Part shown: positions 724 to 31,130 of the stretch, piece after piece
Numbering within the stretch: the stretch's first letter is position 1
How the letters are laid out: each line of letters begins with the position of its first letter
From: Escherichia phage VTCCBPA_322
Reading direction: 5' to 3' (one strand)
DNA length: 64,000 bases
Sequence record: PP989839.1
Notes under the pieces: generated by a model
What the model was told of the DNA's origin: nothing
Databases searched by the model: none
What the model saw: only the letters and a program-made list of their open reading frames with translations
Program-made: the position numbers and the translations under genes

Positions 724-3021
724 ATGAACGAAATGTTCTCGCAAGGTGGCAAAGGCTCCACTGGTATTCTTACCAATAAGCAAGCTATTGCCCGTCATTT
801 TGGTATTAAGCAATCCGAGGTTCTTTACTTCTCTGTTGGTGCTGTATTAGATGGTTATAAAGTCATTTATGACAAGTCCACTCAAAGGAGTTATTCCTTA
901 CCTGCTGGTATTCCATCTGGCACTACTGCTATTAGTCTAAGCACTGCTGCTGTACTTGTACACTCAGCAGGCAGTGAGGACTTAGGTACTTTGGCTGCTA
1001 CTCGTAAGGAATTTATAACTAAGCAGGAGAACTTTAATACAGGCTTTACTATTAGTACCCATAATGAGCAAGTAGTTACTCCTGGTGGGGTTTACTACTG
1101 GGCAGGGTCTTTACCTAAAGTTGTACCTCCTGGTTCCTCTATTGAGGAAACTGGTGGGGTGAATGCTACTGCATGGGTTAATTCATACTCCAATGCTGTC
1201 TTATGTATTAAGGATTTGCTGACACATCCACAGGGTGGCACAGTTAGTGTGGTTGGTTACATTTCTGGTACGGACTTTGGTGGTGGTGATTTTTACTGGG
1301 ATGCTACTCGTCCACGTAGTAAACATAATGGTATTACAGTATTCAGTCCTACTGTTCCATTTAGTGGTTTATATACGGATATACCGAATTTCCATGCTAA
1401 GGTTGGAGAGACTGCACCTGATGCCAATGGTTGTTGGGTGCGTAAGGACTGTGGTCGTAAAGTTCTAATGTCATGGGGTGGTGTAGATATTTCAGGCACT
1501 CAGCCAATGGATGCCGTAGTAACAAGTATGTGTACTTATGTGCATAATACTCGTCAGATTTTGGATGCTGATGAGAATGCTGTACTTAAGGCAGGGTTTA
1601 CTACCGGTACTCAGACCAAAGATAAGCACAATGTGTTTACCCAAGCTTCTGTAATCTTAGAGGGTAAGTATGTCACCATTCGTGGTAATGGGGCTAAGAT
1701 TGATACATATCACCCTGTCCACAGAGAACGTTCTGTATTTGTTCTTCGTAATGGTGGGTATAACATTTCTGGTTTTAAATGGAATGATGGGTACACTGAC
1801 TTTAGTACTTCCCCTACGGATACCCAGCACAAACAAGGTGAATGGTGGATGGGTATTGTTGCAGATGGTGCAGTTACTTTAGTAGCTGACCACCATGAAG
1901 TAACTGCTTCTCAGGTATTTGTACGAGCAGATGCATTTAATGCTACGGACTGGAATGAAAGAGTAACTGTACGGTATAGTAAGTTTGACTACATTACTAA
2001 CTACTGTTTCCTTAGTCGTAAGCTGAAACATTATGAGTTCAGCTACAATGAGGTTAAACACAATGGCCGTGAGTGGCATACTTATGGGGAAGCATGTGCT
2101 CCAACCACATACACCACACATACTATTATACGTAGTAATAACTTCTTCAATCAGATCGCAGAACAATCCTGTATTACTCCTGGGTCATACCATAAGTCCT
2201 GTCTGATTGTTAATAACCATTGTGAACGCTATCGAGGCATTTTCGTTGAGATTGGTTCTTCCAGTAATATCAGCATTCTGAATAACTACTCTTATTCCAG
2301 TGGTGAAAGGGATAGTTCTCATATCCTACTTGTATCTGGTGGGGTAGATGACGAACCAGAGGGTGGTTTGAATAACTTGTTGATTAACGGTAATGTGTTT
2401 GAGAGTGGACCGTATACGCTGCGGGAGTACAACACTGGTACTCCAGTTCGCAGAGGCATTACATTCTCTAATAACCACATTATTGATTGCCCTATGCCTA
2501 ATATGGGTAATGCTGCTTACCACTCAATGGCATTTACCAATAACTACTGCCAGCCACCAGCAGACTTCCCGTATCTGGTATGGGCAGGTAAGAATCCAAT
2601 TATTGAAGGCAATACTTTTGTTGGTGGGGTTATTCGTGCTAGAGATCTGGGTTATACCATTACTAACCCAATCATTCGTAATAACGTATTCCGTGATGGT
2701 AGTACTGTTCAGACATTCCCTGCATTAATTGATATGACTGACTTTACCCGTTTAGTTGCTGAGGGTAACGATGTAACTAATGCTACCTTTACTCGTGTAA
2801 TTGTTGATCCAGCCAACTGTACTTCGGTCGGGTTTAAACGTATTGGGCAGGCAGAGGGTTTTGAATCTAACCCAGCTACCTTGTATGGTGCTAAACTTAC
2901 GGATGTAATTAATGGTGATATTGTGATGAACAATAACCCAGGTAATGCTGAAGGTGGTTACGCATGGGTATGCGTAAATTCTGGTTCTAAACAATTTGGT
3001 AAAATTGTCGTAGCTGTGTAA
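724..3021 (+). CDS. tailspike / tail fiber with right-handed beta-helix (pectate-lyase-like) domain, putative depolymerase
   Basis: ATG with GAAGAGG RBS; 765 aa; Asn-rich rung segments (NNHCERYRGIFVEIG, NNLLINGNVFESG, FSNNHIIDCP, IRNNVFRDG) typical of parallel beta-helix tailspikes; strong terminator downstream. Confidence 0.65.
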   Translation: MNEMFSQGGKGSTGILTNKQAIARHFGIKQSEVLYFSVGAVLDGYKVIYDKSTQRSYSLPAGIPSGTTAISLSTAAVLVHSAGSEDLGTLAATRKEFITKQENFNTGFTISTHNEQVVTPGGVYYWAGSLPKVVPPGSSIEETGGVNATAWVNSYSNAVLCIKDLLTHPQGGTVSVVGYISGTDFGGGDFYWDATRPRSKHNGITVFSPTVPFSGLYTDIPNFHAKVGETAPDANGCWVRKDCGRKVLMSWGGVDISGTQPMDAVVTSMCTYVHNTRQILDADENAVLKAGFTTGTQTKDKHNVFTQASVILEGKYVTIRGNGAKIDTYHPVHRERSVFVLRNGGYNISGFKWNDGYTDFSTSPTDTQHKQGEWWMGIVADGAVTLVADHHEVTASQVFVRADAFNATDWNERVTVRYSKFDYITNYCFLSRKLKHYEFSYNEVKHNGREWHTYGEACAPTTYTTHTIIRSNNFFNQIAEQSCITPGSYHKSCLIVNNHCERYRGIFVEIGSSSNISILNNYSYSSGERDSSHILLVSGGVDDEPEGGLNNLLINGNVFESGPYTLREYNTGTPVRRGITFSNNHIIDCPMPNMGNAAYHSMAFTNNYCQPPADFPYLVWAGKNPIIEGNTFVGGVIRARDLGYTITNPIIRNNVFRDGSTVQTFPALIDMTDFTRLVAEGNDVTNATFTRVIVDPANCTSVGFKRIGQAEGFESNPATLYGAKLTDVINGDIVMNNNPGNAEGGYAWVCVNSGSKQFGKIVVAV

Positions 3022-17345: not shown

Positions 17346-17383
17346 TTCCTATATACGATATAAGTTTGAACAGGAAACATGCT

Positions 17384-20300
17384 ATGTCAACATTTGACCG
17401 TCTGGCAGGTTTCGCAGACAGCATCACTAATGCCAAGCAAGTCGATGTCTCTACTGCAACCTCTCAGAAGCAAGCTGCACAAGGGCAAAGCCCTTTCCAA
17501 TTAACCCCAGAGAATGCTTACAATCTCCAAACTGGTCGTGTAGGTAATCTTGGAATCGGTGCATTCGAACCAGGTTCACTTCAGGCAGATTTCACTCAAG
17601 CCTCTCCATTAGAAATTCTTAATAAATACGGTAATGAGCAAGGTCTACAGATTCTTAATAGCCGAGCTAATGCTGCTGATGTTGTACGTCAGGACTTATC
17701 TAAGCAACGTACTAACGCAGAAGCATTTGGTGATACTCTTTCTGGTGTTGGTCTTGGTGTTGCTAATACCCTTGGGGGCATTGCTGCTCTTGGCACAGGT
17801 CTGGTCAATGATAATGCCGGGGCATCCATTGCTTCCGGGATGGATTGGTTGAATGAAGGTGTACACAATCTACAGTCTGATGCACTGAATGCTACCCGTA
17901 AGGTTGTTCAGAATCAGAACCTGATTTCTGCACAAAAGAACCAGAAACTTTATGAAGAAGACATTAAGAATGGGGAGAGCAGTTTGGTTGCCTCCTTGTC
18001 TCGCATTGGTCGTGACGCTTTTGATTCCGTTGCTAATACACTTGATAATGGTATGGCTGCCACCGATGGACTGAGTGAAGGTGTTGGTTCCCTCTTTACT
18101 GGTGGTCCACTTATCCGTGGTGTATCTGCACTTGGTAAAGTAATGGTAGGTGGTGATAAAGCTATTAAAGGTATTACCTTAGCTGCTGAGTTAGGTTCAC
18201 GCCCTGCACAGGTTGCATTGTCTGCTGGTCGTGTTGCTGCACCTGCTATAGCAATTGGTGGTATGGAAGCTGGTGGTGCATACCAACAGACTGCTTCTGA
18301 AATCATGAAGATGTCCCATCAAGAATTAGCAAGTAAGTCTCCTGTTTATCAACAACATATTGCTGATGGTTTATCCCCTGATGAAGCTCGTCGTCAGACT
18401 GCATCTGAAACAGGTATCGTTGCTGCTGGCTTAACTGCTCCGGTTGCTGCTGCTACTGGTCCACTGGTATCCAAATTTGAACTCAACCCCCTTAAAGTAG
18501 GTTCACTGGCTGGTGCTGGCTCTAACATGCTACGTGAGACTGTAGAAGAAGGTATCCAGTCCGGTACTAGTCAGTTTGCACAGAACAAAGCAATTCAGGG
18601 TAATGTAGATGCTAAGCGTGATTTGCTTAAAGGTGTCGGTGAACAAGCAGGTCTTGGTGCACTTTATGGCTTCGGTAGTGCTGGTGTTGCTCAGGCTCCA
18701 GGTGCAACTGTTAAAGCTGTTGGTGCTTCTGCTGGGCCTGCTTTACGTACTACTCTGGCTGGTGCTTCTCTGGTTGGTAGTGCATTAGCAAAAGCTGCCT
18801 CTCCTATTACTAACATCCTGGTTCAACGTGGGGAAGAAGTTGCTAAGCGTAATGAACAAGCATCTCCTGTATCAGACGCTACAGTTAACGCTGCTGCACA
18901 AGAAGCTACTGCTCAGGCAGAACAAGCACAAGCAACTGTACAGGAAGCAGTAGATGCAATGGATATTTCTCCTGAAGAGAAAGCTGCTGCTACTCAGTAT
19001 GCTGCTGACTTAACTCAGGCAATGAAGTTTGACCCAGTAGAGTTAGAGCAAGCTAATCCAGCAATCCGTGAAGCTGTTTCTGGTTCCACTAACCGTGTAG
19101 AAGCTATTCAGAAGATGGCTGACCTGGTTAATACTGCTGAAGACCCTAACGTTCAAATGGAAGCTGCAATCCAGATGTATGACAACATCATGTCTATGGA
19201 TAGCTTCATTAATCGTGACCCGGGTGCTTTGGCTAATCTGGAACAGGGTTCTCCTGCTGCTAATATTGTTGACCAGTTCTCCGGTCTGATGGCTAACGTA
19301 CAGAATACTCCAAAGGTACTTCGTGCATTCCGTGCCATCCATTCTATGATTCAGGAACAGGCTGAAGCAGGTAAGTTAAAAGCTACTGAAGAAGCTAATC
19401 AAGCCCAAGCAAACAACATTGCTATGGCTGCTGATATGTCTCCAGAAGTATTGGATGCAGATTCAGTGAACATGGTTCTGAAACATGCAAGTGAAGGTAA
19501 GATTACACTGGGTAATCGTCAGCGTGCTGCCTTGCAATCTGCTGCTGCTTTATTACAAGGAGCACGGGAATTTGACGCTAAAGCAGAAGAACTGGGCTTA
19601 CGTCCTCAGGACATTGTTAGTAAACAGATTAAAACCGACGAATCTCGTTCTAATGAAGGTCAGTACTCTGCGTTGCAACATGCTAAACGCATTCGTTCTG
19701 CGTACAACTCTGGTAACTTCGATTTGGCTTCCGCTTATCTCGACGACTTTATGAAGTTCGCCCAGCACATGCAGAATAAGGTCGGAGCGTTGAATGAGCA
19801 TCTGATTTCTGGGAATGCGGATAAGAATAAGTCTGTCCATTATCAGGCTCTTACTCCCTCCCGTGAATGGGTACGTAGTCGTACTGGCCTCGGTGTCAAT
19901 CCGTATGATACCAAGTCGGTTAAGTTTGCCCAGCAAGTAGGACTGGAGGCCAAAACCGTAGCTGATATTGCTAATGCACTTGCTACGGCTTACCCGGAGC
20001 TTAATGTTTCTCATGTGAAGGTTACCCCATTAGATTCACGTCTGGACAAGCCTGCTGCCCAGGTGGTTAAAGAGTTCCGTCAGGGCAATCTTGACGCTGC
20101 TCAATCCCAACAGACCAATGAACCAGTGAATCAGGTTGATAAATCTCCTGCACCTGTGCAAGAGGCCACTACTACTGTACAGCCTAAAGCTAAACTAGTG
20201 GTAGAAAATAAGACTGTTCCTGTTAAGGAGACTAGTTCAAAAGCAGAAGAAGTCTCTACTACCGAATCCGAAAGGGATGCTTATGTGAAAGAAAATACTA

Positions 20301-23300
20301 TTTCACAGGACATCCTCAATAAGAGCGGTGATCGTAGAGAGAGTCCTTGGCTCTTTGCTGATGGTACTGTTGTTGGTTCTAACGGCGATCACATTAGCCT
20401 GTCCGATGTATTTGGTCACGATGGCTATCGTGATATGTCTTTGGATACTGGTGCTGTACGTTCTACTTTCTATAAAGGCAGTGAGCAACCATTCGTATCT
20501 TTGCAACTTTTTGATAATCAGAAGCTAACTACTGAACAATTCAATACTGTTCAATCATTCGTAGAAGCAAACAATGCACTGATTCAGATTGGTGTAGATA
20601 CGTCTGGGCGTAACACCAATAACGTTGAGAAGATAGAAGTATCACTGGCCCAACTGAAAGCAGACTATACCGTTGGTGGTAAACCCCTGTCTGAGATGGA
20701 AACAGTGTTCCCTGTCTATAACAATGACAAGACACCGAACCAGTTCCTGAAAGCATTTACCCTGCCGGAAGAACCTAAGTCTCGCACCATTGGTTCTGAA
20801 TCCCCTTTGACTGATGTTAAGCAAGCACTGTCTTCTGCTGCTCGCTTTGAAGCATTCACTCAAAAAGAAAATAACGCTCTCACAAGTGATGTGATTAAGC
20901 GTTATCAGGACTTAATGGACTTTGGTGAAACTCTGAAGACTACTTTGTCTGACCGTCTGACTAAGTTTCTTGCTAATAAGAATGTTGGTAAACGTTTTGC
21001 AGAAGGTACTGAGGCTAACCGTTGGGTAGGTGGTAAGTTACTTAACATCGTAGAGAAAGATGGGGATACCTTTAAGTTCAATGACCAGTTGTTAGAGACT
21101 GCTGTACTTGCTGGTCTGCAATGGCGACTTACTGCTACACAAAATGCTGCTGTTAAAGATATGAAAGACGTAGCTGCTATTACTGGAGTAGAAGCATCCT
21201 TGTTACCTGAAGGTATCCTGGCTGAATTTGAGAATGCTCAGACTCTGGTTGAAGCTACTAACTCACTGGCTCAAAAGATTGAATCTTACTGGGGTCTGAA
21301 TCGTAATCCTAATGCACCTCTGGGTTATACCAAAGGTATCCCAATGGCAATGGCTACAGAGATTCTGTCTTCTTTCATTGAGATGGGTGAAGTTAAAGAA
21401 TCTATGCTGGATGTGTCTGAGTTTGACCCAGCTTCTAATAAGACTGTTGGTCTGTATACTATTGAGAAACTGGATGATAATGATGCCATTAACAAATTCC
21501 CTACTGCTATTGAGGAAGCTGTCCTCGTAGAACCAGAAGAGAAAATGTACTTTGGTGATGATATTCCTTCCGTGGCTCAAACACAGTTACGTAATCCTGC
21601 TGTTAAGAATACCCCAGAGCAGAAAGCTGCTCTTAAAGCAGAACAGGCTACCGAGTTCCGTGTACACATGCCTATGGTTAACTTCTATGAAGCATTAGGT
21701 CGTGACAACATTCTGGAACTGATGGGTGCTGGTACTCTTAATCCTGAACTGCTGAACGTGAATACTGCTAAATCATTGGAAGGTAAAAACCTGTCCGTGT
21801 CCATGGCATATGATTCCTTGTTTGGTGTAATCAATCAATTACAGGAACAGGAGAATGGTCTGGATACGCCTATTCACTATGGTTACAACATGACCCGTGT
21901 AGGTCGTATGCAGATGCTTGGTAAGAACAACCCACAATCCAGCAAGCTGGTTCGTGAAGCAATTCTGCCAACCTTCTCTACTATTGACTTAAGTAATGAA
22001 AATAGCCAAACGTTCTCTGACTTCCAGTTAGGTCTGGCTCAGGCATTGGGCATCAAGGTTCATAATATGTCCCGTGAAGCTATGTCTGAAAAACTGACCA
22101 AAGCTCTGGAAGGTAATTTGAAACCTGCTGTTGATATGATGGTTGAGTTTGATAAGTCCGGTCACTTACCTGCTGATGCAGTAGATATTCTGAAGACATC
22201 TCTGGGTGGTGATAAATCATTCGTAGCTCTTATGGCTCTTATGGAATATGCCCGTTACCTTAACAGTACTGACCGTGCTAACTTTAATACCCCACTGTAC
22301 GTTGAAGCCGATGGTGTAACCAACGGGCCAATCAATGCAATGGTATTAATGACCGGTGGTAAGTTCACTTCGGATTGGATTAAGAATACTGCTAAAGGTG
22401 GTTTGTTCTTCGGTAAAGCTGGTAAGACTATGAACGAACACCGTTCACAGGATGACAGTGTTGACTTGTATGAAGCATCTACTAATGGTCTGCAACAAGC
22501 ACTAAATGAGTTACGTACTACTTACCGTAATAATGTTCCGGTCATGAACCAGATGAATCATCTTCAGAAGTTAATGGACCTGTTCATTAAAGACTTTAAC
22601 CTGAACGAAGACGGTACTTTGGACCTGAAACGTGGTATCGCTAAAAACCCACTGACTATTACCATCTATGGTTCTGGTGCTCGTGGTATTGCTGGCAAGA
22701 TGGTTAGTGCAATTACTGACACCATCTATGAACGCTTCAGTGATGTTCTGCAAGCTCGTGCTGCTGACCCTAGCATTTCCCCAGCTATGGCAATGTTTGG
22801 TAAGGAGGCTGCGTCTGAGGCTAATGCTCAGGCTATGCTGGATACTTTCCTTACATCTATGGAAGCACTGACTGGTAATGTTCCAGTTATGCGTAAAGGT
22901 CAACTGTCTATTCAACAGGTAGAAGGTGCTCTGACTGGTAAGTTAGACCCACAGAAATTTACTGTATCTGGTAATGCCCTGAAGAACTTACAAGAGAACA
23001 TGCTTCACCTGTTCGTTGAACCAATGCGTACTGGTATCCGTAATACTGTTGGTGAAGGTCTTATGCATTCTACTGAGAACTTGCAGAAGGCTACCCAGAT
23101 TCAGTCTTTGGTTCTGCAAGACATGTTCCAACAAGCAGTACAGGCTAAGCTGGCAGAAAAAGAAAAAGACCCAACATGGAAGAAGGGTGATTTCTTAACA
23201 CAGAAAGAACTTAATGAAATCCAGGAATCATTATCTCCACTGGCTCCAATGATTGAGACTGGTTCACAGACTTTCTACATTGCTGGTAGTGAGAATACTG

Positions 23301-26300
23301 ACGTTGCTAACCAAGTTCTGGCTACCAACTTAGATGATCGTATGCGTGTGCCAATGAGCATCTATGCTCCTTCACAGGCAGGCGTTGCAGGTATTCCATT
23401 TATGACCATTGGTACTGGCGATGGCATGATGATGCAGACCCTTTCTACTATGAAAGGTGCTCCGAAGAATACCCTGAAAATCTTTGATGGTATGAACATT
23501 GGTATCGACAACATCACTGATGCAAGTCGTAAAGCTAACGAGGCTGTATACACTTCCTGGCAGGGTAACCCTATCAAGAATGTCTACGACTCCTTCTCTA
23601 AGTTCATGAAGAATGTAGACTTCAGCAAACTGTCTGATGAAACCAAACAGGCTATCGCTAAATCTGCTCTGGAATATGACCAGCGTGAAGGTGCTACCGA
23701 TGACCTGTTACGTGTTGGTGCTGAACAGATTGAACGTAATCTGCGCAACATTGCTCTGGGTGTGGATATTCGCCACAAAGTAATGAACCAGGTACAGACT
23801 ACTGTTGACCAGATGGCTGCTGTAGGTGCTCCTTATGTGAACAACGGTAAAATCTCTCTGGAAGGTCTGACTGTAGACCAGCAAGTAGCTAAGCTGAACG
23901 AACTGTTTGATGCTGAGTTAAACAAGCGTCGTGATGCAGTACGTGCTGCTAAAGCAGAACCAGTGAAAGAAGTACCAGCAATGGAACAGGTTGGTCGTGT
24001 ACTGAAGTCTGGTGTACGTCTGCTGTCTAATACTGCTATCTCTAAGCTGGCTAAAGAGATGTCTCCGGAACAGCAAGCGGTACTGAAAGAAGTACAGAAA
24101 TCCCTTGCTGCTAAAGACTACAAAGTTGTTTATGGTACTCCTGCTCAATTAGATGCTTATGCTATTGAGAAGAATATTACTCGCCCAGCACCAGAAGATA
24201 TTGAAGCTGCTGAAGCAGGTAATGCATACGGCTGGACTAACTTTGATGATAAGACTATCTACTTAGTTACCCCTTCCTTGGAGACTCTGGTTCATGAATT
24301 GGTACATGCTTCTACTTTCGAATCTGTACTGGCTCATTATGAAGGTACTCCAAATGAAGCAGTCCAAAATATTGAAGACTTAATGAATCAGTTCCGTACT
24401 CTGGATGTTAAGGATGAATCTCCGGCAGTACGCGAAGCATATGCAGATGCTCTTAATACCATTAATGGTCATTTGTCTAATGGCTTCATTGAACCAGCAA
24501 TGGCTAAAGCTGCTGCACTTAACGAGTACATGGCATGGGGTTTAACTAACCGTGAACTAATTAGCAAGCAGAAGAAAACTACTGCACTGAAGACTATGGT
24601 TCAGGCTGTGTATGAAGCAATCAAGCGTCTGGTATTCGGACGTAAGAAAGCTCCCGCTAATGCAGATGATATGTTCTCTGGTTTACTATTTAACTCTGCT
24701 GTAGTTATGCGAGGACAAGCTCCTACTGCTGCTGTAGCCAAGGATACTACTCTGTTCCATAACAAAGCATACGGTGACAATACTCGTCTGGAAGAGCTAG
24801 GGAAAACCTTCGATAAACTGATTACAGACTACATTGGTTCAGAACCAGTACAACAAGTAATTCGTAAGGGTAAATTCTCTGATGCAGTAGTGAATGCAAC
24901 TAAAGTAACCCGTGATGTTCAGGCTCATGGCTTCACTATGAATATGCAGGAACAGCGTCTATTCACTAACATCGTTGCTGCTCTGGCTACTGAAGCTGCC
25001 ATTAGTCCTGCTGCCCTGGCTCGTGCACAGGAATACTATACGCATGTTACTAAGAACCTGACCGTTGAATCGTTCATGGCTGACCCGGATAGTACTAACC
25101 CTGCTGACCGTTACTATGCTCAACAGAAGTTCGATACCATTATGGGTGCTAACAATATTGAGTTTGATGCACAGGGCCGTTCTTCCTTACTGCCTACCTT
25201 TGTTGGTCTGGCAATGGTAAGTGAAGAGGTACGTAAAGTACTGGCAGACATTCCTGTTATGAAAGCAGATAAGCAATCCGGTAATACAGTTGATGCAATG
25301 CTGACTAACATTGGTACTGCTGCAATGGCTAGTCTGAATGCTCGTGTAGCGGGTGATACTAAGGCTACCAATGTACAGGAAGGTATGGATGCACTGGCTC
25401 AGACAATCATGCAGACGAGTCTCAATGCACAGTCCTTCTATGATTCCGTTGCTACTCCTAGTGGTAATGCTATTGACCGTGCTAACCAGTATCTGGTGGA
25501 TTCTATTGATGCATTGTCTACCCGTGCTTTAGAAGGTGCTCGTGAAGTTGCAGCTAATACCAAGAACCCGTTGGTTAAAGGTGCTGCTCATGCTGCACAA
25601 CTAATAGCTGCTATTGCTACAGAGAAGAATGGTGAAATCGTAGCTGAAGGCGTTATGGCTGCAATGAACCAGGGTAAAGTGTGGCAACCTTTCCATGACC
25701 TGGTTAATGACTTAACAGGCCGTACTAAGAGCAATGCTTCTGTATACGATTTGATTAAGGCAGTACGTGCACAGGTACAAGCTGACCGTCAACAGTTCCG
25801 TGAACATTTGCCTACCACTATCGCATCTAAGTTCAGCCGTAAGCTGACTAATGATGAATGGAAAGCAATGCATACTGGTATGGGTAAAACTGACTTAGCT
25901 GTTTTACGTGACACTATGTCTCTGGCTGAAATTCGTGACTTGCTGACTGACCAAAAGATTGTTGACCGTGAAGTGAATAAGCTGGAAGCAGACTTACAGA
26001 AACAAGCTGGTCGTAACTGGCCTCTGATTAGCCGTAAATCTAAGCAACTAGCTCAGTACATGATTAACGGTACAGTTGGTAATAACCTGCTGCGTAATGC
26101 TACAGCAATCTCTCGTATGCTGGGTGAACGTCAGGCTGCACGTTCTACTGTAGATGTAGCTCAACTGGATAAACTGATTACTCTGTATGCACTGGAAGCA
26201 ATGAGTAAGACTGACCGTGAGATGTTATCTTCACTGGCTCAATCAGAAGTTGATGGAATTGATTTTGCTACTTCTTACCTGGTTGGTCAGCGTAAAGATG

Positions 26301-28096
26301 AAATGGCTAAAGCCAAGTCTGACATGCGTGCAACCCTGAACCAGTACAAAGGTTATATCCCAAGTGAGACTAAGCAAGGTGTTAACCTGATTGTTGCTGA
26401 AGACAGTCAATTTGCTGATTTGATTGAGAAGTCTTATGTACGTCTGGGTACTTATCAAGGTAGTTCTGCTAATCGTGGTTCAGCACGTAGCTACTACTTC
26501 GCACCGGTACAGGCACAGGCTCCATTCTCACAGGGTATTCTACAGAACGTTCGTAATACTGCTGGTGGTGTAGACCTTGGTACAGGATTTACGATGGGAA
26601 CCATGGTGGCTGGTCGTATTACTGACAAGCCTTCTGTAGACCGTATCACTAAAGCACTGGCTCGTGGTGAACGAGGTAATGAGCCACTGATGCCTGTATA
26701 TGATGACAAAGGTAATGTAGTTGCTTATGAACAATCTATTGACCCTAACATGCTGAAGCACATTGAGGGTGAGAACCATCTTGCTCGTGCAATCGGTGTA
26801 TGGCGTGGTCGTCAGGTGGAAGAAGCTAAGGCTCAGCGTTTCAACGATATGCTAATTGAGAATCTGCATAGCATGTATGAGAACGACATTAAGATGTCTG
26901 CCTCTAATAAGTCCCAGTACGTTAACCTTCTTGGTTCTAAGCTGGACCCAGTAACTGCTGATGCCCTTAAGCTGATGAACAGTGAAACACGTCAGAAAGC
27001 AGAAAGCCTGTTTGGCGAAGGTGAACTGTGGGTTCGTCGTGACATGCTGAATGATGCACTAGGCTATCGTGCAGCTTCCGTTGGTGATGCCTGGTCTGGT
27101 AATTCTCGTTGGTCCCCGGAAACACTGGATACCTTTAAGAAAGCTATGCTTGGTGTGTTCGGCAACCGTGCCTACAAGTATGTAATGGGTGGTGAGAACC
27201 TGGTTCAGAACTTAGTTAAAGAAGCTAAGACTCTGATTGTAGTTAAATCAGTGGTTGTACCTGCTGTTAACTTCCTGGCTAACCTTTACCAGATGGTTGG
27301 TCGTGGTGTACCCGTTAAGAACATTGCTAAAAGCATTCCACAGAAGACTGCTGAGATTAACCAGTACCTGAAATCTCGTCTGCGTCAGGTAGACGCAGAA
27401 GCAGAATTACGTGCAGCCACTAACCCGAACCAGATTCGTAAACTTAAGGCTGAGATTCAGTCTATTACTGACAGCCATAAGCGTATGAGTATCTGGCCTC
27501 TGTTAGAAGCTGGTGAGTTCTCTTCAATTGCAGATGCTGGTATTGGGCGTGATGATATCCTGATTACTGAGGGTAAACTCCATGAATACATGGATAAACT
27601 GGCTGATAAGTTACCTAAGTCTGTACGCAACGCTGGACGTTATGCACTTATCACCAAAGATACTGCTCTCTTCCAGGGTATCCAGAAGACGGTTGAGTAC
27701 TCTGACTTTATCGCTAAAGCAATCATCTATGATGATTTGACTCAGCGTAAAGGTAAGACTCGTGAAGAAGCACTAGGACGTGTAACGGAGGAGTTCATTA
27801 ACTATGACCGTTTGCCTGGTCGCTTCCGTGGGTATATGGAAAGTGTTGGTTTAATGTGGTTCTACAACTTTAAGATTCGTTCTGCGAAAATTGCAGTATC
27901 CATGATTCGTAACAACCCGGTACATGCAGCTATGGCTATGTTGGCTCCAACTCCTACCATGTTTGGTAACGTTGGTTTACCTATTCAGGACAACATCTTC
28001 AGTATTGCTGCACAAGGTAATCTTGGTTACTCCTGGGGCTTCGGTCAGGGCTTACGTGCCCATAACCTTAACCCTTGGCTCAACCTCACTAACTAA
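17384..28096 (+). CDS. virion-encapsidated giant RNA polymerase (N4 gp50-like vRNAP)
   Basis: 3570-aa ORF (ATG 17384 with AGGAAA RBS; track start 17366 is TTG); central region has T7-like polymerase motifs: DG near PLYVEADGVTNGPINA, motif B-like KNPLTITIYGSGARG, motif C-like KIFDGMNIG; hallmark of N4-like phages. Confidence 0.9.
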   Translation: MSTFDRLAGFADSITNAKQVDVSTATSQKQAAQGQSPFQLTPENAYNLQTGRVGNLGIGAFEPGSLQADFTQASPLEILNKYGNEQGLQILNSRANAADVVRQDLSKQRTNAEAFGDTLSGVGLGVANTLGGIAALGTGLVNDNAGASIASGMDWLNEGVHNLQSDALNATRKVVQNQNLISAQKNQKLYEEDIKNGESSLVASLSRIGRDAFDSVANTLDNGMAATDGLSEGVGSLFTGGPLIRGVSALGKVMVGGDKAIKGITLAAELGSRPAQVALSAGRVAAPAIAIGGMEAGGAYQQTASEIMKMSHQELASKSPVYQQHIADGLSPDEARRQTASETGIVAAGLTAPVAAATGPLVSKFELNPLKVGSLAGAGSNMLRETVEEGIQSGTSQFAQNKAIQGNVDAKRDLLKGVGEQAGLGALYGFGSAGVAQAPGATVKAVGASAGPALRTTLAGASLVGSALAKAASPITNILVQRGEEVAKRNEQASPVSDATVNAAAQEATAQAEQAQATVQEAVDAMDISPEEKAAATQYAADLTQAMKFDPVELEQANPAIREAVSGSTNRVEAIQKMADLVNTAEDPNVQMEAAIQMYDNIMSMDSFINRDPGALANLEQGSPAANIVDQFSGLMANVQNTPKVLRAFRAIHSMIQEQAEAGKLKATEEANQAQANNIAMAADMSPEVLDADSVNMVLKHASEGKITLGNRQRAALQSAAALLQGAREFDAKAEELGLRPQDIVSKQIKTDESRSNEGQYSALQHAKRIRSAYNSGNFDLASAYLDDFMKFAQHMQNKVGALNEHLISGNADKNKSVHYQALTPSREWVRSRTGLGVNPYDTKSVKFAQQVGLEAKTVADIANALATAYPELNVSHVKVTPLDSRLDKPAAQVVKEFRQGNLDAAQSQQTNEPVNQVDKSPAPVQEATTTVQPKAKLVVENKTVPVKETSSKAEEVSTTESERDAYVKENTISQDILNKSGDRRESPWLFADGTVVGSNGDHISLSDVFGHDGYRDMSLDTGAVRSTFYKGSEQPFVSLQLFDNQKLTTEQFNTVQSFVEANNALIQIGVDTSGRNTNNVEKIEVSLAQLKADYTVGGKPLSEMETVFPVYNNDKTPNQFLKAFTLPEEPKSRTIGSESPLTDVKQALSSAARFEAFTQKENNALTSDVIKRYQDLMDFGETLKTTLSDRLTKFLANKNVGKRFAEGTEANRWVGGKLLNIVEKDGDTFKFNDQLLETAVLAGLQWRLTATQNAAVKDMKDVAAITGVEASLLPEGILAEFENAQTLVEATNSLAQKIESYWGLNRNPNAPLGYTKGIPMAMATEILSSFIEMGEVKESMLDVSEFDPASNKTVGLYTIEKLDDNDAINKFPTAIEEAVLVEPEEKMYFGDDIPSVAQTQLRNPAVKNTPEQKAALKAEQATEFRVHMPMVNFYEALGRDNILELMGAGTLNPELLNVNTAKSLEGKNLSVSMAYDSLFGVINQLQEQENGLDTPIHYGYNMTRVGRMQMLGKNNPQSSKLVREAILPTFSTIDLSNENSQTFSDFQLGLAQALGIKVHNMSREAMSEKLTKALEGNLKPAVDMMVEFDKSGHLPADAVDILKTSLGGDKSFVALMALMEYARYLNSTDRANFNTPLYVEADGVTNGPINAMVLMTGGKFTSDWIKNTAKGGLFFGKAGKTMNEHRSQDDSVDLYEASTNGLQQALNELRTTYRNNVPVMNQMNHLQKLMDLFIKDFNLNEDGTLDLKRGIAKNPLTITIYGSGARGIAGKMVSAITDTIYERFSDVLQARAADPSISPAMAMFGKEAASEANAQAMLDTFLTSMEALTGNVPVMRKGQLSIQQVEGALTGKLDPQKFTVSGNALKNLQENMLHLFVEPMRTGIRNTVGEGLMHSTENLQKATQIQSLVLQDMFQQAVQAKLAEKEKDPTWKKGDFLTQKELNEIQESLSPLAPMIETGSQTFYIAGSENTDVANQVLATNLDDRMRVPMSIYAPSQAGVAGIPFMTIGTGDGMMMQTLSTMKGAPKNTLKIFDGMNIGIDNITDASRKANEAVYTSWQGNPIKNVYDSFSKFMKNVDFSKLSDETKQAIAKSALEYDQREGATDDLLRVGAEQIERNLRNIALGVDIRHKVMNQVQTTVDQMAAVGAPYVNNGKISLEGLTVDQQVAKLNELFDAELNKRRDAVRAAKAEPVKEVPAMEQVGRVLKSGVRLLSNTAISKLAKEMSPEQQAVLKEVQKSLAAKDYKVVYGTPAQLDAYAIEKNITRPAPEDIEAAEAGNAYGWTNFDDKTIYLVTPSLETLVHELVHASTFESVLAHYEGTPNEAVQNIEDLMNQFRTLDVKDESPAVREAYADALNTINGHLSNGFIEPAMAKAAALNEYMAWGLTNRELISKQKKTTALKTMVQAVYEAIKRLVFGRKKAPANADDMFSGLLFNSAVVMRGQAPTAAVAKDTTLFHNKAYGDNTRLEELGKTFDKLITDYIGSEPVQQVIRKGKFSDAVVNATKVTRDVQAHGFTMNMQEQRLFTNIVAALATEAAISPAALARAQEYYTHVTKNLTVESFMADPDSTNPADRYYAQQKFDTIMGANNIEFDAQGRSSLLPTFVGLAMVSEEVRKVLADIPVMKADKQSGNTVDAMLTNIGTAAMASLNARVAGDTKATNVQEGMDALAQTIMQTSLNAQSFYDSVATPSGNAIDRANQYLVDSIDALSTRALEGAREVAANTKNPLVKGAAHAAQLIAAIATEKNGEIVAEGVMAAMNQGKVWQPFHDLVNDLTGRTKSNASVYDLIKAVRAQVQADRQQFREHLPTTIASKFSRKLTNDEWKAMHTGMGKTDLAVLRDTMSLAEIRDLLTDQKIVDREVNKLEADLQKQAGRNWPLISRKSKQLAQYMINGTVGNNLLRNATAISRMLGERQAARSTVDVAQLDKLITLYALEAMSKTDREMLSSLAQSEVDGIDFATSYLVGQRKDEMAKAKSDMRATLNQYKGYIPSETKQGVNLIVAEDSQFADLIEKSYVRLGTYQGSSANRGSARSYYFAPVQAQAPFSQGILQNVRNTAGGVDLGTGFTMGTMVAGRITDKPSVDRITKALARGERGNEPLMPVYDDKGNVVAYEQSIDPNMLKHIEGENHLARAIGVWRGRQVEEAKAQRFNDMLIENLHSMYENDIKMSASNKSQYVNLLGSKLDPVTADALKLMNSETRQKAESLFGEGELWVRRDMLNDALGYRAASVGDAWSGNSRWSPETLDTFKKAMLGVFGNRAYKYVMGGENLVQNLVKEAKTLIVVKSVVVPAVNFLANLYQMVGRGVPVKNIAKSIPQKTAEINQYLKSRLRQVDAEAELRAATNPNQIRKLKAEIQSITDSHKRMSIWPLLEAGEFSSIADAGIGRDDILITEGKLHEYMDKLADKLPKSVRNAGRYALITKDTALFQGIQKTVEYSDFIAKAIIYDDLTQRKGKTREEALGRVTEEFINYDRLPGRFRGYMESVGLMWFYNFKIRSAKIAVSMIRNNPVHAAMAMLAPTPTMFGNVGLPIQDNIFSIAAQGNLGYSWGFGQGLRAHNLNPWLNLTN

Positions 28097-28097
28097 A

Positions 28098-28128
28098 TGA
28101 AAAAGCCCCTCTAATGAGGGGCTTTACT
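28098..28128. terminator. bidirectional intrinsic terminator at convergence of late (+) and early/middle (-) transcription
   Basis: AAAGCCCCTC-TAAT-GAGGGGCTTT 10-bp stem; U-run on minus strand (TTTTTCATTT), weaker on plus. Confidence 0.75.
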
Positions 28129-28136
28129 CTTAGAAG

Positions 28137-28367
28137 TTAAGGTGTTTTCCACATTTTAGGCTTACGCCCTTCACTTGGAAATTTACCAGTCTCCTTAATC
28201 TTTCGTAGTGTTTCTTCAGATGGGAACCACAGGAATGTGAAGTAAAGCTTCTTAGCTACGTAACGAGTTACTCCTAGTTTCTCTGCGATTTCATCGAATG
28301 AATATGTACGAACGGTATTGTTGAGAATGGCTTCACGAACAACAGAGGTAATAGATACTTGTGTCAT
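28137..28367 (-). CDS. small protein with HTH-like segment
   Basis: ATG at 28367 with AGGAAA RBS; 76 aa; SFDEIAEKLGVTRYVAKK resembles helix-turn-helix. Confidence 0.5.
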   Translation of the reverse strand: MTQVSITSVVREAILNNTVRTYSFDEIAEKLGVTRYVAKKLYFTFLWFPSEETLRKIKETGKFPSEGRKPKMWKTP

Positions 28368-28386
28368 GCTATTTTCCTATAAATGA

Positions 28387-28420
28387 GAAAGCCCTCACTA
28401 GGAGGGCTTGTTTTGTTTTG
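28387..28420 (+). terminator. hairpin with plus-strand T-run inside minus-strand module (antisense-blocking or bidirectional terminator)
   Basis: GAAAGCCCTC-ACTA-GGAGGGCTT followed by GTTTTGTTTT on plus strand. Confidence 0.4.
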
Positions 28421-28489
28421 GCTTCTTGAGCCTTACCACTTGTCTGGTAGTTCAGTACCTTTCGGTAAAAACTACCTTACATCTTTGAA

Positions 28490-28870
28490 TCAGATTGTAC
28501 AACCACCACCATCACAGGTGTTGTTTTCTGCAAAGGAAGCTAGAGCCTTAGCTGTCTCCTCTTTCTCATGCAGTGCCTGACGTAGCAGGTAACCCTCTAA
28601 TTCCCAAATCTTATTGAATGCATTTTCATATGCATACTGACGGCCTTTCTTCTCATCATAGATAGTTGGGTCTACACAGGCAGATACACCTTCAACTTTG
28701 AAGCCGTTTTCTAGGATGATAATGCAATGAGTTGTCAGACCCAGGTTAGCTAAATCATCTGCCGGGAGTGCAGATGGATCAACGAATGCAGACTTCACTG
28801 CATCAGCACCATTGAAATAGTAGACGCTCTTAATCTTAGCTTCGATTGCTTCTTTACTTACTGTTGCCAT
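28490..28870 (-). CDS. hypothetical protein
   Basis: ATG at 28870 with GAGG RBS (track start 28882 also ATG); 126 aa; preceded by terminator 28931-28968. Confidence 0.5.
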   Translation of the reverse strand: MATVSKEAIEAKIKSVYYFNGADAVKSAFVDPSALPADDLANLGLTTHCIIILENGFKVEGVSACVDPTIYDEKKGRQYAYENAFNKIWELEGYLLRQALHEKEETAKALASFAENNTCDGGGCTI

Positions 28871-28930
28871 TATTAGCCTCATAGAGTGGTTTTAGTGTGT
28901 GCTTAAACATGATTACGTTTATTAATACTC

Positions 28931-28968
28931 AAATAAAAAAGTCCCCCAGAGTGACGGCTCCAGGGGAC
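28931..28968 (-). terminator. intrinsic terminator ending the non-coding / tRNA-like transcription unit
   Basis: minus strand AAGTCCCC...GGGGACTT stem followed by TTTTTTATTT. Confidence 0.65.
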
Positions 28969-29752
28969 TTAGTACTATTTACCCATAGCTGGGAGGCTTT
29001 TGGTTCTTACCACGAAGACAGTCCACGCTGACTAGGCTTGGGATTGATAGTCCCGTTCCTGTGGTAATTACTCAGGCTAGGATTTAAGGAGTTCCTATTC
29101 TCCAGCGAAATTCCCGTCGAGGGGAATAACAATACAATAGCAGCCACTGGACTGTCTTACCAGTGTTGTCTTTAGAGTGCTGTGCAATCAGGACTATGTT
29201 ACTGCTAAATAGGTGAGTCATGCCAGGCTCTAACTGGCTCCTTCTTCGCAATCCTTACATACCCCTACATAATTATTGCGTTAAGCTTTTTTGTTTAAGT
29301 TTAAGTGAAGGCGTTCTTGCTGACTCATAATTAGGTTGGGCGTTTGACGAATGACTAGTTCGTTACTACCCGTTTGCCATAAGTACCTGGCGACTTTGGT
29401 TTGAGGTGGGAGTCCGAGTCCTGTACAGCCTTACCGTTCACACATTGGCAGCGTATCTAGAATAGCACTTCCGGCAACTGGATTTAACTGTTACACCTCA
29501 AATCTGGTAGGGGCGTCCAGAAGTCTCATCTGGTACTTACGCCGTCGTATGGTTACGACTTACCCCCATTGTTAGTTGCTCGGCTCACCCCCTCGACTAA
29601 AGTGACCTTTGAGGGGCTACGCTACACTATGTGTTTCATCCCATTACAGAGAATCATCAGGCGTATTAGTTGGTCACCCCGGATACCTACTTACCGAGCA
29701 TTGGTATCGTATGACTCTTCCAATTAGAAGTAGCACTGTTGCAGTCGTCACT

Positions 29753-29826
29753 GCCCATAGGTAAGGACTCGAACCTTACAATACCATTGGTTTACAATGT
29801 CGCTGTACCATTTCGCGTTCTATGCA
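29753..29826 (-). tRNA. tRNA-sized tRNA-like element (degenerate or unusual tRNA)
   Basis: minus strand: canonical T-arm TAAGG-TTCGAGT-CCTTA, D-loop-like AAATGGTACA flanked by CGC/GCG, anticodon-like arm CATTG-TAAAC-CAATG; acceptor pairs only 5-6 of 7; no encoded CCA. Confidence 0.3.
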
Positions 29827-29840
29827 ATGCTACTTTGAAT

Positions 29841-29964
29841 TGGTTATCAGTGAAGGATTCGAACCTCCGGTTGGAGTCTATAGCTTACCGCAGCAGCCCT
29901 CCAATCTAGCGGTGTCACACTTAGTCCAAACTTGAACATGTCAAGCCATCTCGTGCAACTGATA
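29841..29964 (-). ncRNA. tRNA-like RNA, about 124 nt, with perfect acceptor stem, canonical T-arm and encoded CCA
   Basis: minus strand 5'-TATCAGT...GGAGG-TTCGAAT-CCTTC-ACTGATA-A-CCA-3'; 7/7 acceptor pairing; long internal stem TTGGAG/CTCCAA abutting T-arm; too long for a canonical tRNA. Confidence 0.45.
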
Positions 29965-29966
29965 AT

Positions 29967-30094
29967 TGGTTCCAGGAGAAGGAATCGAACCTCCAAGTCA
30001 GGCCGTGAACCCTGACTATATCACCTACACTTAGTAGGCTTACTCTAACTGCTGCGCATTACATTAAAGCTATACCTAGTGTTGATATCCTGGA
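29967..30094 (-). ncRNA. tRNA-like RNA, about 128 nt, with perfect acceptor stem, canonical T-arm and encoded CCA
   Basis: minus strand 5'-TCCAGGA...GGAGG-TTCGATT-CCTTC-TCCTGGA-A-CCA-3'; 7/7 acceptor pairing; 7-bp variable-arm-like hairpin AGTCAGG/CCTGACT abutting T-arm; separated from next element by AT. Confidence 0.45.
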
Positions 30095-31130
30095 ATTGGA
30101 GTTGCCAGGGATTCCACCTGGCTCCATCTGTTTTTATAGTCACTCAGATATCGTCTGGACTCTTTACTGTGGGCTGTACCGACTACTTAGAATAACTACG
30201 GCAAAGATTATTCCACAGCTTACATTGATGGTACAACCCATCAAAGAGTACACTAGCACTGGGCCACGCATAAGTGGGCATCGGCCTTCCTCCCACAGCT
30301 AATCTACTAATGTACTCATTGATAGGATGTCATAATAGGAGGGAGGGGACGAATCCTCCCTTTATACCCTATGTTGCATGTAAGACCTAACATCTCGATG
30401 TTGTATAAATAGCGTAATGAACTATCCGACATTATTGGTTAATGTTGTGCTCAACATGAGCGTTAGTTGATAAGGGATCTGAAGCCTTATCCTAAAGATT
30501 CTAACCTTTGGGATATAGCCTAAGATTCAGAAATGGCCCCTATAGGGAGAGGCCATTGATTAACCCGAATGTTGCTTTACATTTTCTGTAATAACCAATT
30601 CTTAAAATAGTCTGTCTGACGGATGGGGGGCCACCCCTAGCGTCAGTGCCATACGGCAAAGATTAAGTTAAGAAAGGTTATGATAGGAGTTCCTATCTCA
30701 AAGGATTCTAACAGAACCCTTCACGATATTAACTACTCTTTTTTAATGCCTTTACTTCACCATCTTTATACCAAGCATACGGTATTAAGATTTTGCATCC
30801 TTCCGAATCAATGTGGAATGCTTTTTTTCCTTCAGCAGGTTCTCCACCCACGAAAGAACTAACCTTTCCATTGAGCCAGTGAATAGTAAATTTGTTCATG
30901 CTAACCCCGTTTGAACCAATCCCCTTCGGAGAGTATTAAAGGGGACTGGTTCGGTTGTTGTTATTCTGGCGGCTTGTCACCACCGTGTTTACCACTGCAT
31001 TTCCACAGGATAATGACAGTGATGATAAAAGCTATGTATGGAGCCGACACGTCTATAATTCTGACCAGTAGTAGCATCAGGACTATAAACACTACCACAC
31101 CTAGCAGCAGCTTCTGAGCCACCTACCAGA

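Follow-up and report, generated by a model that had tools for sequence, protein, structure and literature searches.

Two tandem oversized tRNA-like RNA genes, probably encoding non-decoding tRNA mimics, in the degenerate tRNA array of an N4-like coliphage

The small stable RNAs C and D of phage T4 have been known since the 1970s. Their genes, rnaD (119 nt) and rnaC (139 nt), form a tandem pair on the tRNA strand, at the distal end of the tRNA cluster of T4. Both RNAs are contained in a precursor of about 1.75 kb with eight tRNAs, and termination occurs after the species I gene (PMC2330249). Publications of 2010 and 2022 still called the roles of both RNAs unknown (PMC3014915, PMC9697503). In this study, two adjacent tRNA-like elements, E1 and E2, were analyzed on the minus strand of a 64,000-nt stretch of DNA from Escherichia phage VTCCBPA_322 (PP989839.1), referred to below as the window. 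The two elements are the closest counterpart yet to the T4 small stable RNAs and represent two new, previously undescribed RNA families of a known, poorly understood kind. On the sequence evidence, E1 and E2 are most probably genes for two different functional, stable, non-decoding tRNA mimics within a degenerate tRNA array, a reading to which we assign a probability of about 0.72. As judged from the alignments described below, the top half of the tRNA (acceptor and T-arm) has been kept by compensatory substitutions in both elements, and the lower halves are lineage-specific and appear unable to present a normal anticodon. The same comparisons point to selection in these phages on the tRNA top half and on specific lower-domain sequences.

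The original prediction described two tandem minus-strand elements of 124 and 128 nt, each with a 7/7-paired acceptor stem, a T-arm, a discriminator A and an encoded CCA, with an AT spacer between them; all of this can be read directly in the sequence (Table 1). From its 5' end (30094 to 29967) E1 reads TCCAGGA...GGAGG-TTCGATT-CCTTC-TCCTGGA-A-CCA, and E2 (29964 to 29841) reads TATCAGT...GGAGG-TTCGAAT-CCTTC-ACTGATA-A-CCA. Both acceptor stems are Watson-Crick paired at 7/7 positions, both T-stems consist of four Watson-Crick pairs and one G.U, and a U occupies position -1 in both elements. The proposed surplus of about 50 nt in the D/anticodon region was borne out, at 45-55 nt beyond tRNA length in E1 as well as E2. 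A descriptor consisting of a 7-bp acceptor, a 5-bp T-stem, a 7-nt T[TG][CG]RA-type loop and NCCA, with a span of 55-200 nt, was scanned over both strands of the 64-kb window and matched only E1 and E2; 30 shuffles gave an average of 0.07 matches. Several features of a tRNA survive in E2, namely U8, a 4-bp D-stem, A14, GG and, ahead of the T-arm, a 'variable' region of two nucleotides (CC). The D-loop of E2, at 32 nt, includes a hairpin of its own, and where a tRNA has its anticodon arm E2 carries a 44-nt domain with a stem TTGGAG/CTCCAA (nt 61-66/89-94) and a possible pseudoknot helix (nt 52-56/74-78). E1 and E2 are not copies of each other, but form two unrelated families.

The elements were examined with tRNA and RNA finders. 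ARAGORN reported no tRNA in the window; run at default settings and with the tmRNA and intron options, it returned no gene for E1 or E2 and no 72-90-nt tRNA with other boundaries. Rfam found nothing in the window at gathering thresholds, and at E<=10 it gave no tRNA-clan, tmRNA, Y RNA or intron match between 28.5 and 31.5 kb. Ordinary tRNAs with other boundaries, which would have refuted the prediction, are thus ruled out. ARAGORN at a 70% threshold with 'introns' of 31-45 nt returned the exact boundaries of E1 and E2; these came with 22 further calls spread over the two strands of 2.3 kb, a noise-level result. Phage tRNAs (RF00005) share with both elements the 7-bp acceptor, the 5-bp T-stem, the TTCGAWT T-loop, the discriminator with CCA and the tight tandem spacing, and E2 additionally shares U8, the 4-bp D-stem, A14 and GG with canonical tRNAs. 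By canonical-tRNA standards, E1 and E2 have the 7-bp acceptor, A73, the encoded CCA and a 5-bp T-stem with a 7-nt TTCRANY-type T-loop. The canonical D-arm, in which 3-4 bp close a loop of 7-11 nt, is replaced in E1 by a 69-nt hairpin and in E2 by a 4-bp stem enclosing the 32-nt loop. The canonical anticodon arm (5-bp stem, 7-nt loop with U33 and a 3-nt anticodon) gives way in E1 to an 8-nt loop on a 7-bp stem, and in E2 to the 44-nt domain, which holds no such hairpin. At 124-128 nt versus 72-90 nt, both elements also differ from canonical tRNAs in length. Because neither has a usable anticodon arm, E1 and E2 are not expected to decode.

The possibility of a removable intron or insertion was assessed by deleting every internal segment of 15-79 nt in silico, and was rejected. 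ARAGORN called 14 of the 3,055 E1 constructs, mostly with a 4-base anticodon; with arm I shortened in silico, E1 was read as a tRNA with the 4-base anticodon 'tcac'. For E2, 580 of 2,795 constructs were called as tRNAs (Ser GGA, Arg GCG). Their anticodon stems contained mismatches, and the deletions that led to a call were spread very widely. The breadth of these calls arises because the acceptor, D- and T-arms of E2 are good, and it does not delimit a defined intron. The predicted alternative of tRNAs with unusual insertions probably holds for the origin of the elements, E2 having kept the D-stem, U8, A14 and GG, but not for a decoding tRNA.

E2 is present in 42 GenBank phage records at 90-100% identity (E. 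coli Gamaleyavirus, Klebsiella Kaypoctavirus and relatives) and is annotated as RNA in none of the 42. An alignment of the 13 distinct sequences contained 17 differing columns. The proposed structure comprises the acceptor (nt 1-7/114-120), the D-stem (10-13/46-49), a hairpin (18-24/30-36), a stem (61-66/89-94) with an extension and the T-stem (97-101/109-113), and 99.1% of its helix cells are paired. Five pairs have changed on both sides: three in the acceptor (U-A/C-G, C-G/U-A and A-U/G-C), one in the D-loop hairpin (18-36) and one in the T-stem. None of six slid registers gave a double-sided pair, and the covariation score and the number of compensated cells were reached by 0 of 500 shuffles. 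Nucleotides 38-97 are almost invariant across the 13 sequences. The stem of the lower domain is invariant, and covariation speaks neither for nor against it. A candidate H-type pseudoknot (52-56/74-78 crossing 61-66/89-94) is 100% compatible with the alignment and shows one A-U to G.U change. Between the window and Kaypoctaviruses E2 is 88-92% identical, versus about 66% for the adjacent coding DNA.

In several records (UE-S5a, UE-M3, nithesis and Bas96) small 'hypothetical protein' ORFs are annotated on top of E2. Because the substitution pattern is pair-preserving, these are probably spurious gene calls over an RNA gene. A protein-coding reading of the locus was likewise rejected, as the opposite strand holds just short TTG-start ORFs and the substitutions preserve pairs. 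For annotation this means that 42 of 42 GenBank records either lack E2 or show spurious 'hypothetical protein' ORFs across it, and that tRNA finders miss such genes or report fragments of them as 'tRNA-OTHER', 'tRNA-Met' or 'tRNA-Val'.

A full-length match to E1 was found in a single GenBank phage, Jgk1 (87%). Its 3' half matches unannotated DNA in the Pectobacterium Cbunaviruses Possum, Horatius and Arno152 and in the 48-kb Erwinia phage Gungnir39, and when IMG/VR and metagenomes were scanned with the E1 core, contigs of Possum-like, Kaypoctavirus-like and Gungnir-like type were also found. The metagenome scan contributed five further loci, too few for deeper covariation statistics on E1. In every case the E1 homologues adjoin true tRNA genes: in Possum the element follows the Asn and Gln tRNAs, in Gungnir39 it lies 4 nt before tRNA-Met, and in Jgk1 it follows a Tyr-Asn-Pro-Gln-Ile tRNA cluster. 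Constrained folds of the members (127-137 nt) gave a common four-way junction of acceptor, arm I, arm II, one nucleotide and T-arm. Arm I is a 55-75-nt hairpin directly after the acceptor, with an interior that is unalignable between subfamilies. Arm II has a stem of 7-8 bp and an invariant 8-nt loop, GUUCAYGG (CAC in the window, CAU elsewhere); the loop is constant in nine distinct members from three phage lineages, and the stem shows only G.U-type changes.

Pairs were counted in a hand-trimmed alignment of the nine distinct E1 members from which the interior of arm I had been taken out. In this alignment 96.3% of cells are paired and seven pairs are double-sided, four of them in the acceptor, two at the base of arm I (nt 8-12 with 72-76) and one in the T-stem. 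The double-sided count was reached by 0 of 500 shuffles, and slid registers gave at most two. Within arm I, the interior helix is supported by changes that keep the pairing intact, seen among Possum-type members and also when the window is compared with Jgk1. A covariance model of the family (R1) scored 60 bits on E1 of the window. Thus, the proposed check with homologues revealed conserved structured RNAs with compensatory changes in the acceptor and T-stems of both E1 and E2.

For comparison with T4, a consensus of rnaC was derived from six divergent homologues (T-even relatives, L042-L046), in which 20 pairs covary on both sides. This is apparently enough for an Rfam-type family, which does not yet exist. 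The rnaC consensus has a 7-position terminal stem with two U.U, followed directly by an arm I of about 70 nt. A linker of 8-10 nt leads to arm II, whose covarying 10-bp stem carries a conserved 6-nt loop (GCGUCAAC); then come one nucleotide and a canonical T-arm, with no encoded CCA. E1 follows the same plan of terminal stem, long arm I, arm II with a conserved loop, one nucleotide and T-arm, whereas E2 does not. Like rnaC, both elements belong to a phage tRNA cluster, share its strand and lie upstream of the cluster terminator. On the other hand, rnaC differs from E1 in the two U.U of its terminal stem, the linker between arms I and II, the longer arm II and the lack of an encoded CCA, and T4 belongs to the Straboviridae, whereas the window is from the Schitoviridae. 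A model of the six rnaC homologues (R2) gave no match in the window with default filters. With filters off and a search space of 701 nt its best match was E1, to which the full length of the model aligned arm for arm, with 9.6 bits and E = 0.012. In the opposite direction, model R1 gave no match to rnaC at E<=1.

Homology of E1 to T4 rnaC was therefore rejected, the models being not significant in both directions. E1 works like, or is at any rate built like, rnaC; the likeness is architectural only, and membership of the rnaC family is not established. RNA D has no T-arm and no tRNA-like fold, and E2 is without a T4 counterpart. The predicted resemblance to T4 stable RNAs thus holds for the architecture shared by E1 and rnaC and for the tandem RNAs at the cluster end in T4, but does not extend to homology or to E2 and rnaD. 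RNAs C and D had looked like a T-even oddity. With oversized tRNA-like RNAs kept in the tRNA clusters of unrelated phages (Gamaleyavirus, Kaypoctavirus, Cbunavirus and the 48-kb Erwinia phage), a single orphan becomes a comparative problem, and several independent families are now at hand in genetically tractable coliphages, including the BASEL phage Bas96. Homologues of rnaC were seen in 740 phage records, mostly unannotated; in Karamviruses the gene is located mid-cluster between tRNA-Trp and tRNA-Gly, and in PG7 a part of it is labelled as a 95-nt tRNA-Met. E2 and rnaC are alike in being usually unannotated or mis-annotated in GenBank.

Other known systems share single features with the elements. 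In tmRNA and YrlA an acceptor/T-arm module is joined to a non-tRNA body, as in E1 and E2. The identity as tmRNA was ruled out by the negative ARAGORN -m and Rfam results and by the length of 124-128 nt versus more than 230 nt; E1 and E2 are far shorter and have no tag reading frame. The termini of YrlA form a Ro-binding helix rather than an acceptor stem. A YrlA/bacterial Y RNA was rejected, since no Rfam match was found at E<=10, no Ro60 or RtcB is annotated in the related phage Mimir124 and the termini of the elements form an acceptor stem. A group I intron within a tRNA, which would place a group I core and more than 200 nt of intron in the anticodon loop, was also rejected; no Intron_gpI match was obtained at E<=10, and the extra 45-55 nt are not one anticodon-loop insertion. 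No match was found in 5,426 complete E. coli genomes, which rejects a host tRNA copy or prophage element, and the conserved cores of E1 and E2 are absent from 100,044 bacterial and archaeal species genomes. The tRNA-Other of B. cereus is a non-translational pseudo-tRNA (PMC3399842), and tRNA-Tyr of phage T5 counters retron Ec78, an example of a phage tRNA in counter-defence (bioRxiv 10.1101/2023.03.15.532788). Both resemble E1 and E2 as tRNA-shaped RNAs beyond ordinary decoding, but have normal tRNA size and cloverleaf. A literature search for tRNA-like RNAs of N4-like phages or Gamaleyavirus found nothing.

By analogy with the T4 tRNAs and RNAs C and D, E1 and E2 would be co-transcribed with the rest of the array. 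From general tRNA biology and the T4 precedent, host RNase P would be expected to cut the 5' ends of both; the cut at E2 would also free the 3' side of E1, and the 2-nt spacer would leave the E1 3' end nearly finished. Host exonucleases may then trim the 3' ends to the encoded CCA, and the RNAs would accumulate as discrete stable species of 128 and 124 nt. Speculatively, they might bind a host or phage protein that recognizes the acceptor, the T-arm or the elbow, the specialized lower arm making each RNA a decoy or inhibitor. Conceivable targets are a tRNA-targeting defence nuclease and a tRNA-processing or -modifying enzyme. A broader proposal, which we regard as doubtful, is that E1 and E2 found a wider class of phage 'oversized tRNA mimics' that includes T4 RNA C, by old descent or convergence, and acts in trans as decoys or inhibitors. 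In such a class host tRNA maturation would make the RNAs abundant, and the target would be a host factor that recognizes tRNA, for instance a defence of the anticodon nuclease type or an enzyme that modifies or processes tRNA. Specificity would then reside in the invariant loop GUUCAYGG of E1 and in the invariant core of E2. If true, this would provide a function for the T4 species 1 RNA type.

Several observations weigh against E1 and E2 being functional tRNA mimics. The count of double-sided pairs in E2 was reached by 104 of 500 shuffles, and three of the five covarying pairs are inherited jointly in the Klebsiella-phage clade, leaving few independent compensatory events. The structure of the E2 core (nt 38-97) has no covariation support, since the core is invariant, and the identity of E2 across genera could result partly from recent horizontal exchange of shuffled array modules. 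Degenerate tRNA-like genes in the array indicate that decay is ongoing in the region. Expression, processing and stability of the RNAs are predicted from the sequence and the T4 analogy, and for the conjectured decoy mechanism the context offers weak hints (phage counter-defence tRNAs, pseudo-tRNAs and 'anti-CRISPR' labels). No Ro60, RtcB, CCA-adding enzyme or RNA ligase is annotated in the phage group, as represented by the relative Mimir124. In addition, the E2 copy of an IMG/VR contig (L028, 3014-3137) ends in ATCA instead of ACCA; this could be either a decaying copy or one whose end is repaired by the host CCA-adding enzyme.

The E1-E2 tandem as it occurs in the window was found in no GenBank record. 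In most Gamaleyaviruses the E1 slot, between a leader motif of about 67 nt and E2, is occupied by a 'mini' element of 66-67 nt that reads TCCGGTG...TCTGG-TTCGAGT-CCAGA-CGCCGGA-ACCA. Its acceptor stem, TCCGGTG/CGCCGGA, is fully re-paired, and in KP8 it is annotated as tRNA-OTHER. Aligned with E1, the mini shows a single 57-nt gap that removes arm I, with 47 of 65 positions identical, and it outscores true tRNAs against the E1 3' half. Model R1 scores the mini no higher than ordinary tRNAs (26-31 bits versus 60-65 for long members). It is plausible, though not proven, that the mini and E1 are related by deletion or insertion. The junction of the mini with E2 in relatives, GGAACCA-AT-TAYCAGT, is the same AT junction as between E1 and E2. 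The order of modules in KP8 differs from the window. The same region of relatives is a phage tRNA region and is mosaic, annotations as tRNA-Ile, Cys, Thr(pseudo), Val, 'OTHER' and 'Pseudo' varying among close relatives.

It is unlikely that the elements are decaying tRNA pseudogenes that have gained insertions and lost their anticodon arms, with conservation due to recent ancestry or module exchange. The mosaic array, in which true tRNAs come and go between close relatives, would fit such decay, as would the other aberrant tRNA-like genes of relatives (134-nt and 88-nt 'Ile-type' genes and tRNA-??? genes with 2-nt anticodons), the 66-nt mini in the E1 slot of most Gamaleyaviruses with its one 57-nt gap versus E1, and the E2 copy without CCA. 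Yet the substitutions in stems are overwhelmingly pair-preserving, with 96-99% of cells paired and five (E2) and seven (E1) double-sided pairs, and even the mini has a re-paired acceptor stem. E2 is far better conserved than the adjoining protein-coding DNA, the E1 arm II loop is invariant in three phage lineages, and arm I diverges but stays a helix. Another reading takes the elements as cis-acting modules, which could serve as RNase P/3'-end 'punctuation' by which the long middle transcript is cut and stabilized, or as conserved boundaries for cassette exchange. Punctuation needs only an acceptor/T-arm minihelix, so that the invariant 60-nt E2 core and the E1 arm II loop would be unexplained, and there are no ORFs between the elements to separate. 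We consider a purely cis-acting role to be quite improbable, even though every module ends in ACCAAT(T) with shared boundary sequence after it, the module order varies between genera and these phages have many HNH endonuclease genes. The spread of the T4 tRNA region by the SegB homing endonuclease (PMC2330249) also counts in its favor. A role in cis is compatible with a trans-acting function and does not exclude it.

That E1 and E2 are working, aminoacylated decoding tRNAs with expansions appears very improbable. E1 could in that case act in frameshifting or suppression, its 8-nt loop presenting UCAC/UCAU as a 4-base anticodon, as in the 'tcac' call for E1 with the shortened arm I, and E2 could be a class-II-like tRNA, in keeping with the 580 of 2,795 called deletion constructs. 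The acceptor, T-arm, A73 and CCA would suit EF-Tu and some synthetases. However, no tool calls the native sequences, and the E2 construct models have mismatched anticodon stems and a very wide deletion range. To our knowledge, bacteria have no splicing pathway for tRNA insertions of this kind. Neither a 65-nt arm in place of the D-arm nor a lower domain of 44 nt would fit easily into the geometry of the ribosomal A and P sites, and the window, with its ordinary long ORFs, gives no sign of recoding.

The window is from an N4-like coliphage of the genus Gamaleyavirus with 90-95% identity to PD205, PBM-2, ECBP1, Bp4 and others. The virion RNA polymerase is encoded by a 3,576-aa ORF at 17366-28096 on the plus strand, opposite to E1 and E2. 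The elements are located in a stretch of about 2.2 kb (about 28.9-31.1 kb) without a substantial ORF, downstream of the replication genes, after the SSB/resolvase genes and before gp48/gp49-like genes. No ORF is present between E1 and E2. A T-arm scan found four strong motifs within about 360 nt of the minus strand (30105-30121, 29978-29994, 29852-29868 and 29762-29778), and a strong terminator closes the non-coding array on its 3' side. The terminator hairpin also appears as weak 'His_leader' Rfam matches; sub-threshold His_leader and RAGATH-25 matches in the region were rejected as terminator hairpins, and the snoRNA and Hammerhead_3 matches are weak.

Table 1. Positions of the tRNA-like elements and other array features in the window; genes of relatives are numbered within the named sequences
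Feature	Position	Strand	Evidence
E1, 128-nt tRNA-like RNA gene	29967-30094	-	sequence, descriptor scan, family alignment, constrained folds, model R1 (60 bits)
E1 acceptor stem	30088-30094/29971-29977	-	
E1 arm I, long irregular hairpin (69 nt) replacing the D-arm, starts right after the acceptor	30019-30087	-	
E1 arm II, 7-bp stem AGTCAGG/CCTGACT with 8-nt loop GTTCACGG (GTTCATGG in all relatives)	29996-30017	-	
E1 T-arm	29978-29994	-	
E1 discriminator A + CCA	29967-29970	-	
AT spacer between the E1 CCA and nt 1 of E2; U at -1 of E2	29965-29966	-	
E2, 124-nt tRNA-like RNA gene	29841-29964	-	sequence, 42 phage records, 13-sequence alignment, pair counts
E2 acceptor stem	29958-29964/29845-29851	-	
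E2 U8		-	
E2 D-stem	29952-29955/29916-29919	-	
E2 D-loop hairpin	29929-29947	-	
E2 near-invariant core	29868-29927	-	
E2 expanded lower domain (nt 51-94), in place of the anticodon arm	29871-29914	-	
E2 T-arm	29852-29868	-	
E2 discriminator A + CCA	29841-29844	-	
Conserved leader motif (~67 nt) directly upstream of the E1 slot (GTCCAGACGATATCTGAGTGACTATAAAAACAGATGGAGCCAGGTGGAATCCCTGGCAAYT)	30095-30161	-	
Third tRNA-like module, 2 nt after E2, no CCA	29725-29838	-	T-arm scan, MFE (minimum free energy) fold z = -3.07, relaxed ARAGORN
Intrinsic terminator, strong, 13-bp stem + U-run, 3' of the non-coding array	28939-28970	-	terminator scan
Non-canonical tRNA-like gene, Jgk1 (L004)	2413-2546		
Non-canonical tRNA-like gene, Bas96 (L019)	2330-2417		
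Non-canonical tRNA-like gene, PBM-2 (L001)	2165-2240		
Non-canonical tRNA-like gene, KP8 (L007)	1398-1472		

The leader motif contains a T-arm-like minihelix, GGAG-CCAGG-TGGAATC-CCTGG-CAA-CTCC, flanked by GGAG/CTCC, with a fold z of -2.2. It is invariant in four Gamaleyaviruses, is 93-96% identical to the Klebsiella Kaypoctavirus versus about 66% for coding DNA, and stands before E1-type or mini elements in L023, L036 and KP8. A recurring phage promoter was rejected for this motif, of which the window has a single copy; a role as leader or in processing is possible. The third module consists of an 11-bp outer stem (AAGTAGCATTG/CAGTGCTACTT) around a small cloverleaf with a 5-bp terminal stem and the T-arm GTAAGG-TTCGAGT-CCTTAC. 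In relatives the outer stem is kept and the enclosed insert is different, like a cassette site. The modules of the array end in ACCAAT(T), followed by the shared boundary sequence (AAAGTAGCAYTG...CAGTGCTAC).

Further tRNA-like sequences were observed in the arrays of relatives. In KP8 a bare minihelix, TCCCCGT-(13 nt)-ACGGGGA-ACCA, is located just upstream of the E2 copy (L007, about 1958-1992); the acceptor of the KP8 tRNA-Leu-type gene has exactly the same stem. According to the KP8 paper, two of the six KP8 'tRNA genes' could not be identified. An 'Ile-type' tRNA-like lineage is represented by 77 nt in PBM-2, 88 nt in Bas96 (annotated as tRNA-Val) and 134 nt in Jgk1; these genes have normal acceptor, D- and T-arms and an aberrant anticodon region. 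ARAGORN applied to relatives also reported 'tRNA-???' genes with 2-nt anticodons.

Three minus-strand islands of the array (30240-30330, 29398-29569 and 28963-29218) are non-coding and 80-96% identical to Klebsiella Kaypoctaviruses, versus about 66% for neighbouring genes. The Hammerhead_3-like Rfam match at 29628-29689 on the minus strand reached 18.8 bits, where the gathering score is 48.5 (E = 1.6). The core motifs CUGAUGA...GAAAC and a 4-bp stem II are present, but with U.U at 10.1/11.1, and the match is probably due to chance, though it lies inside the structured array. The region of Mimir124 (L041, 36366-37365) that corresponds to about 28100-28900 of the window carries the gp48/gp49-like (DUF2829) genes 3' of the array, with the automated label 'anti-CRISPR protein'. 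According to the annotation of Mimir124, several genes for HNH endonucleases are present in the phage group as well, along with one for a small PNK-like 3'-phosphatase/5'-kinase.

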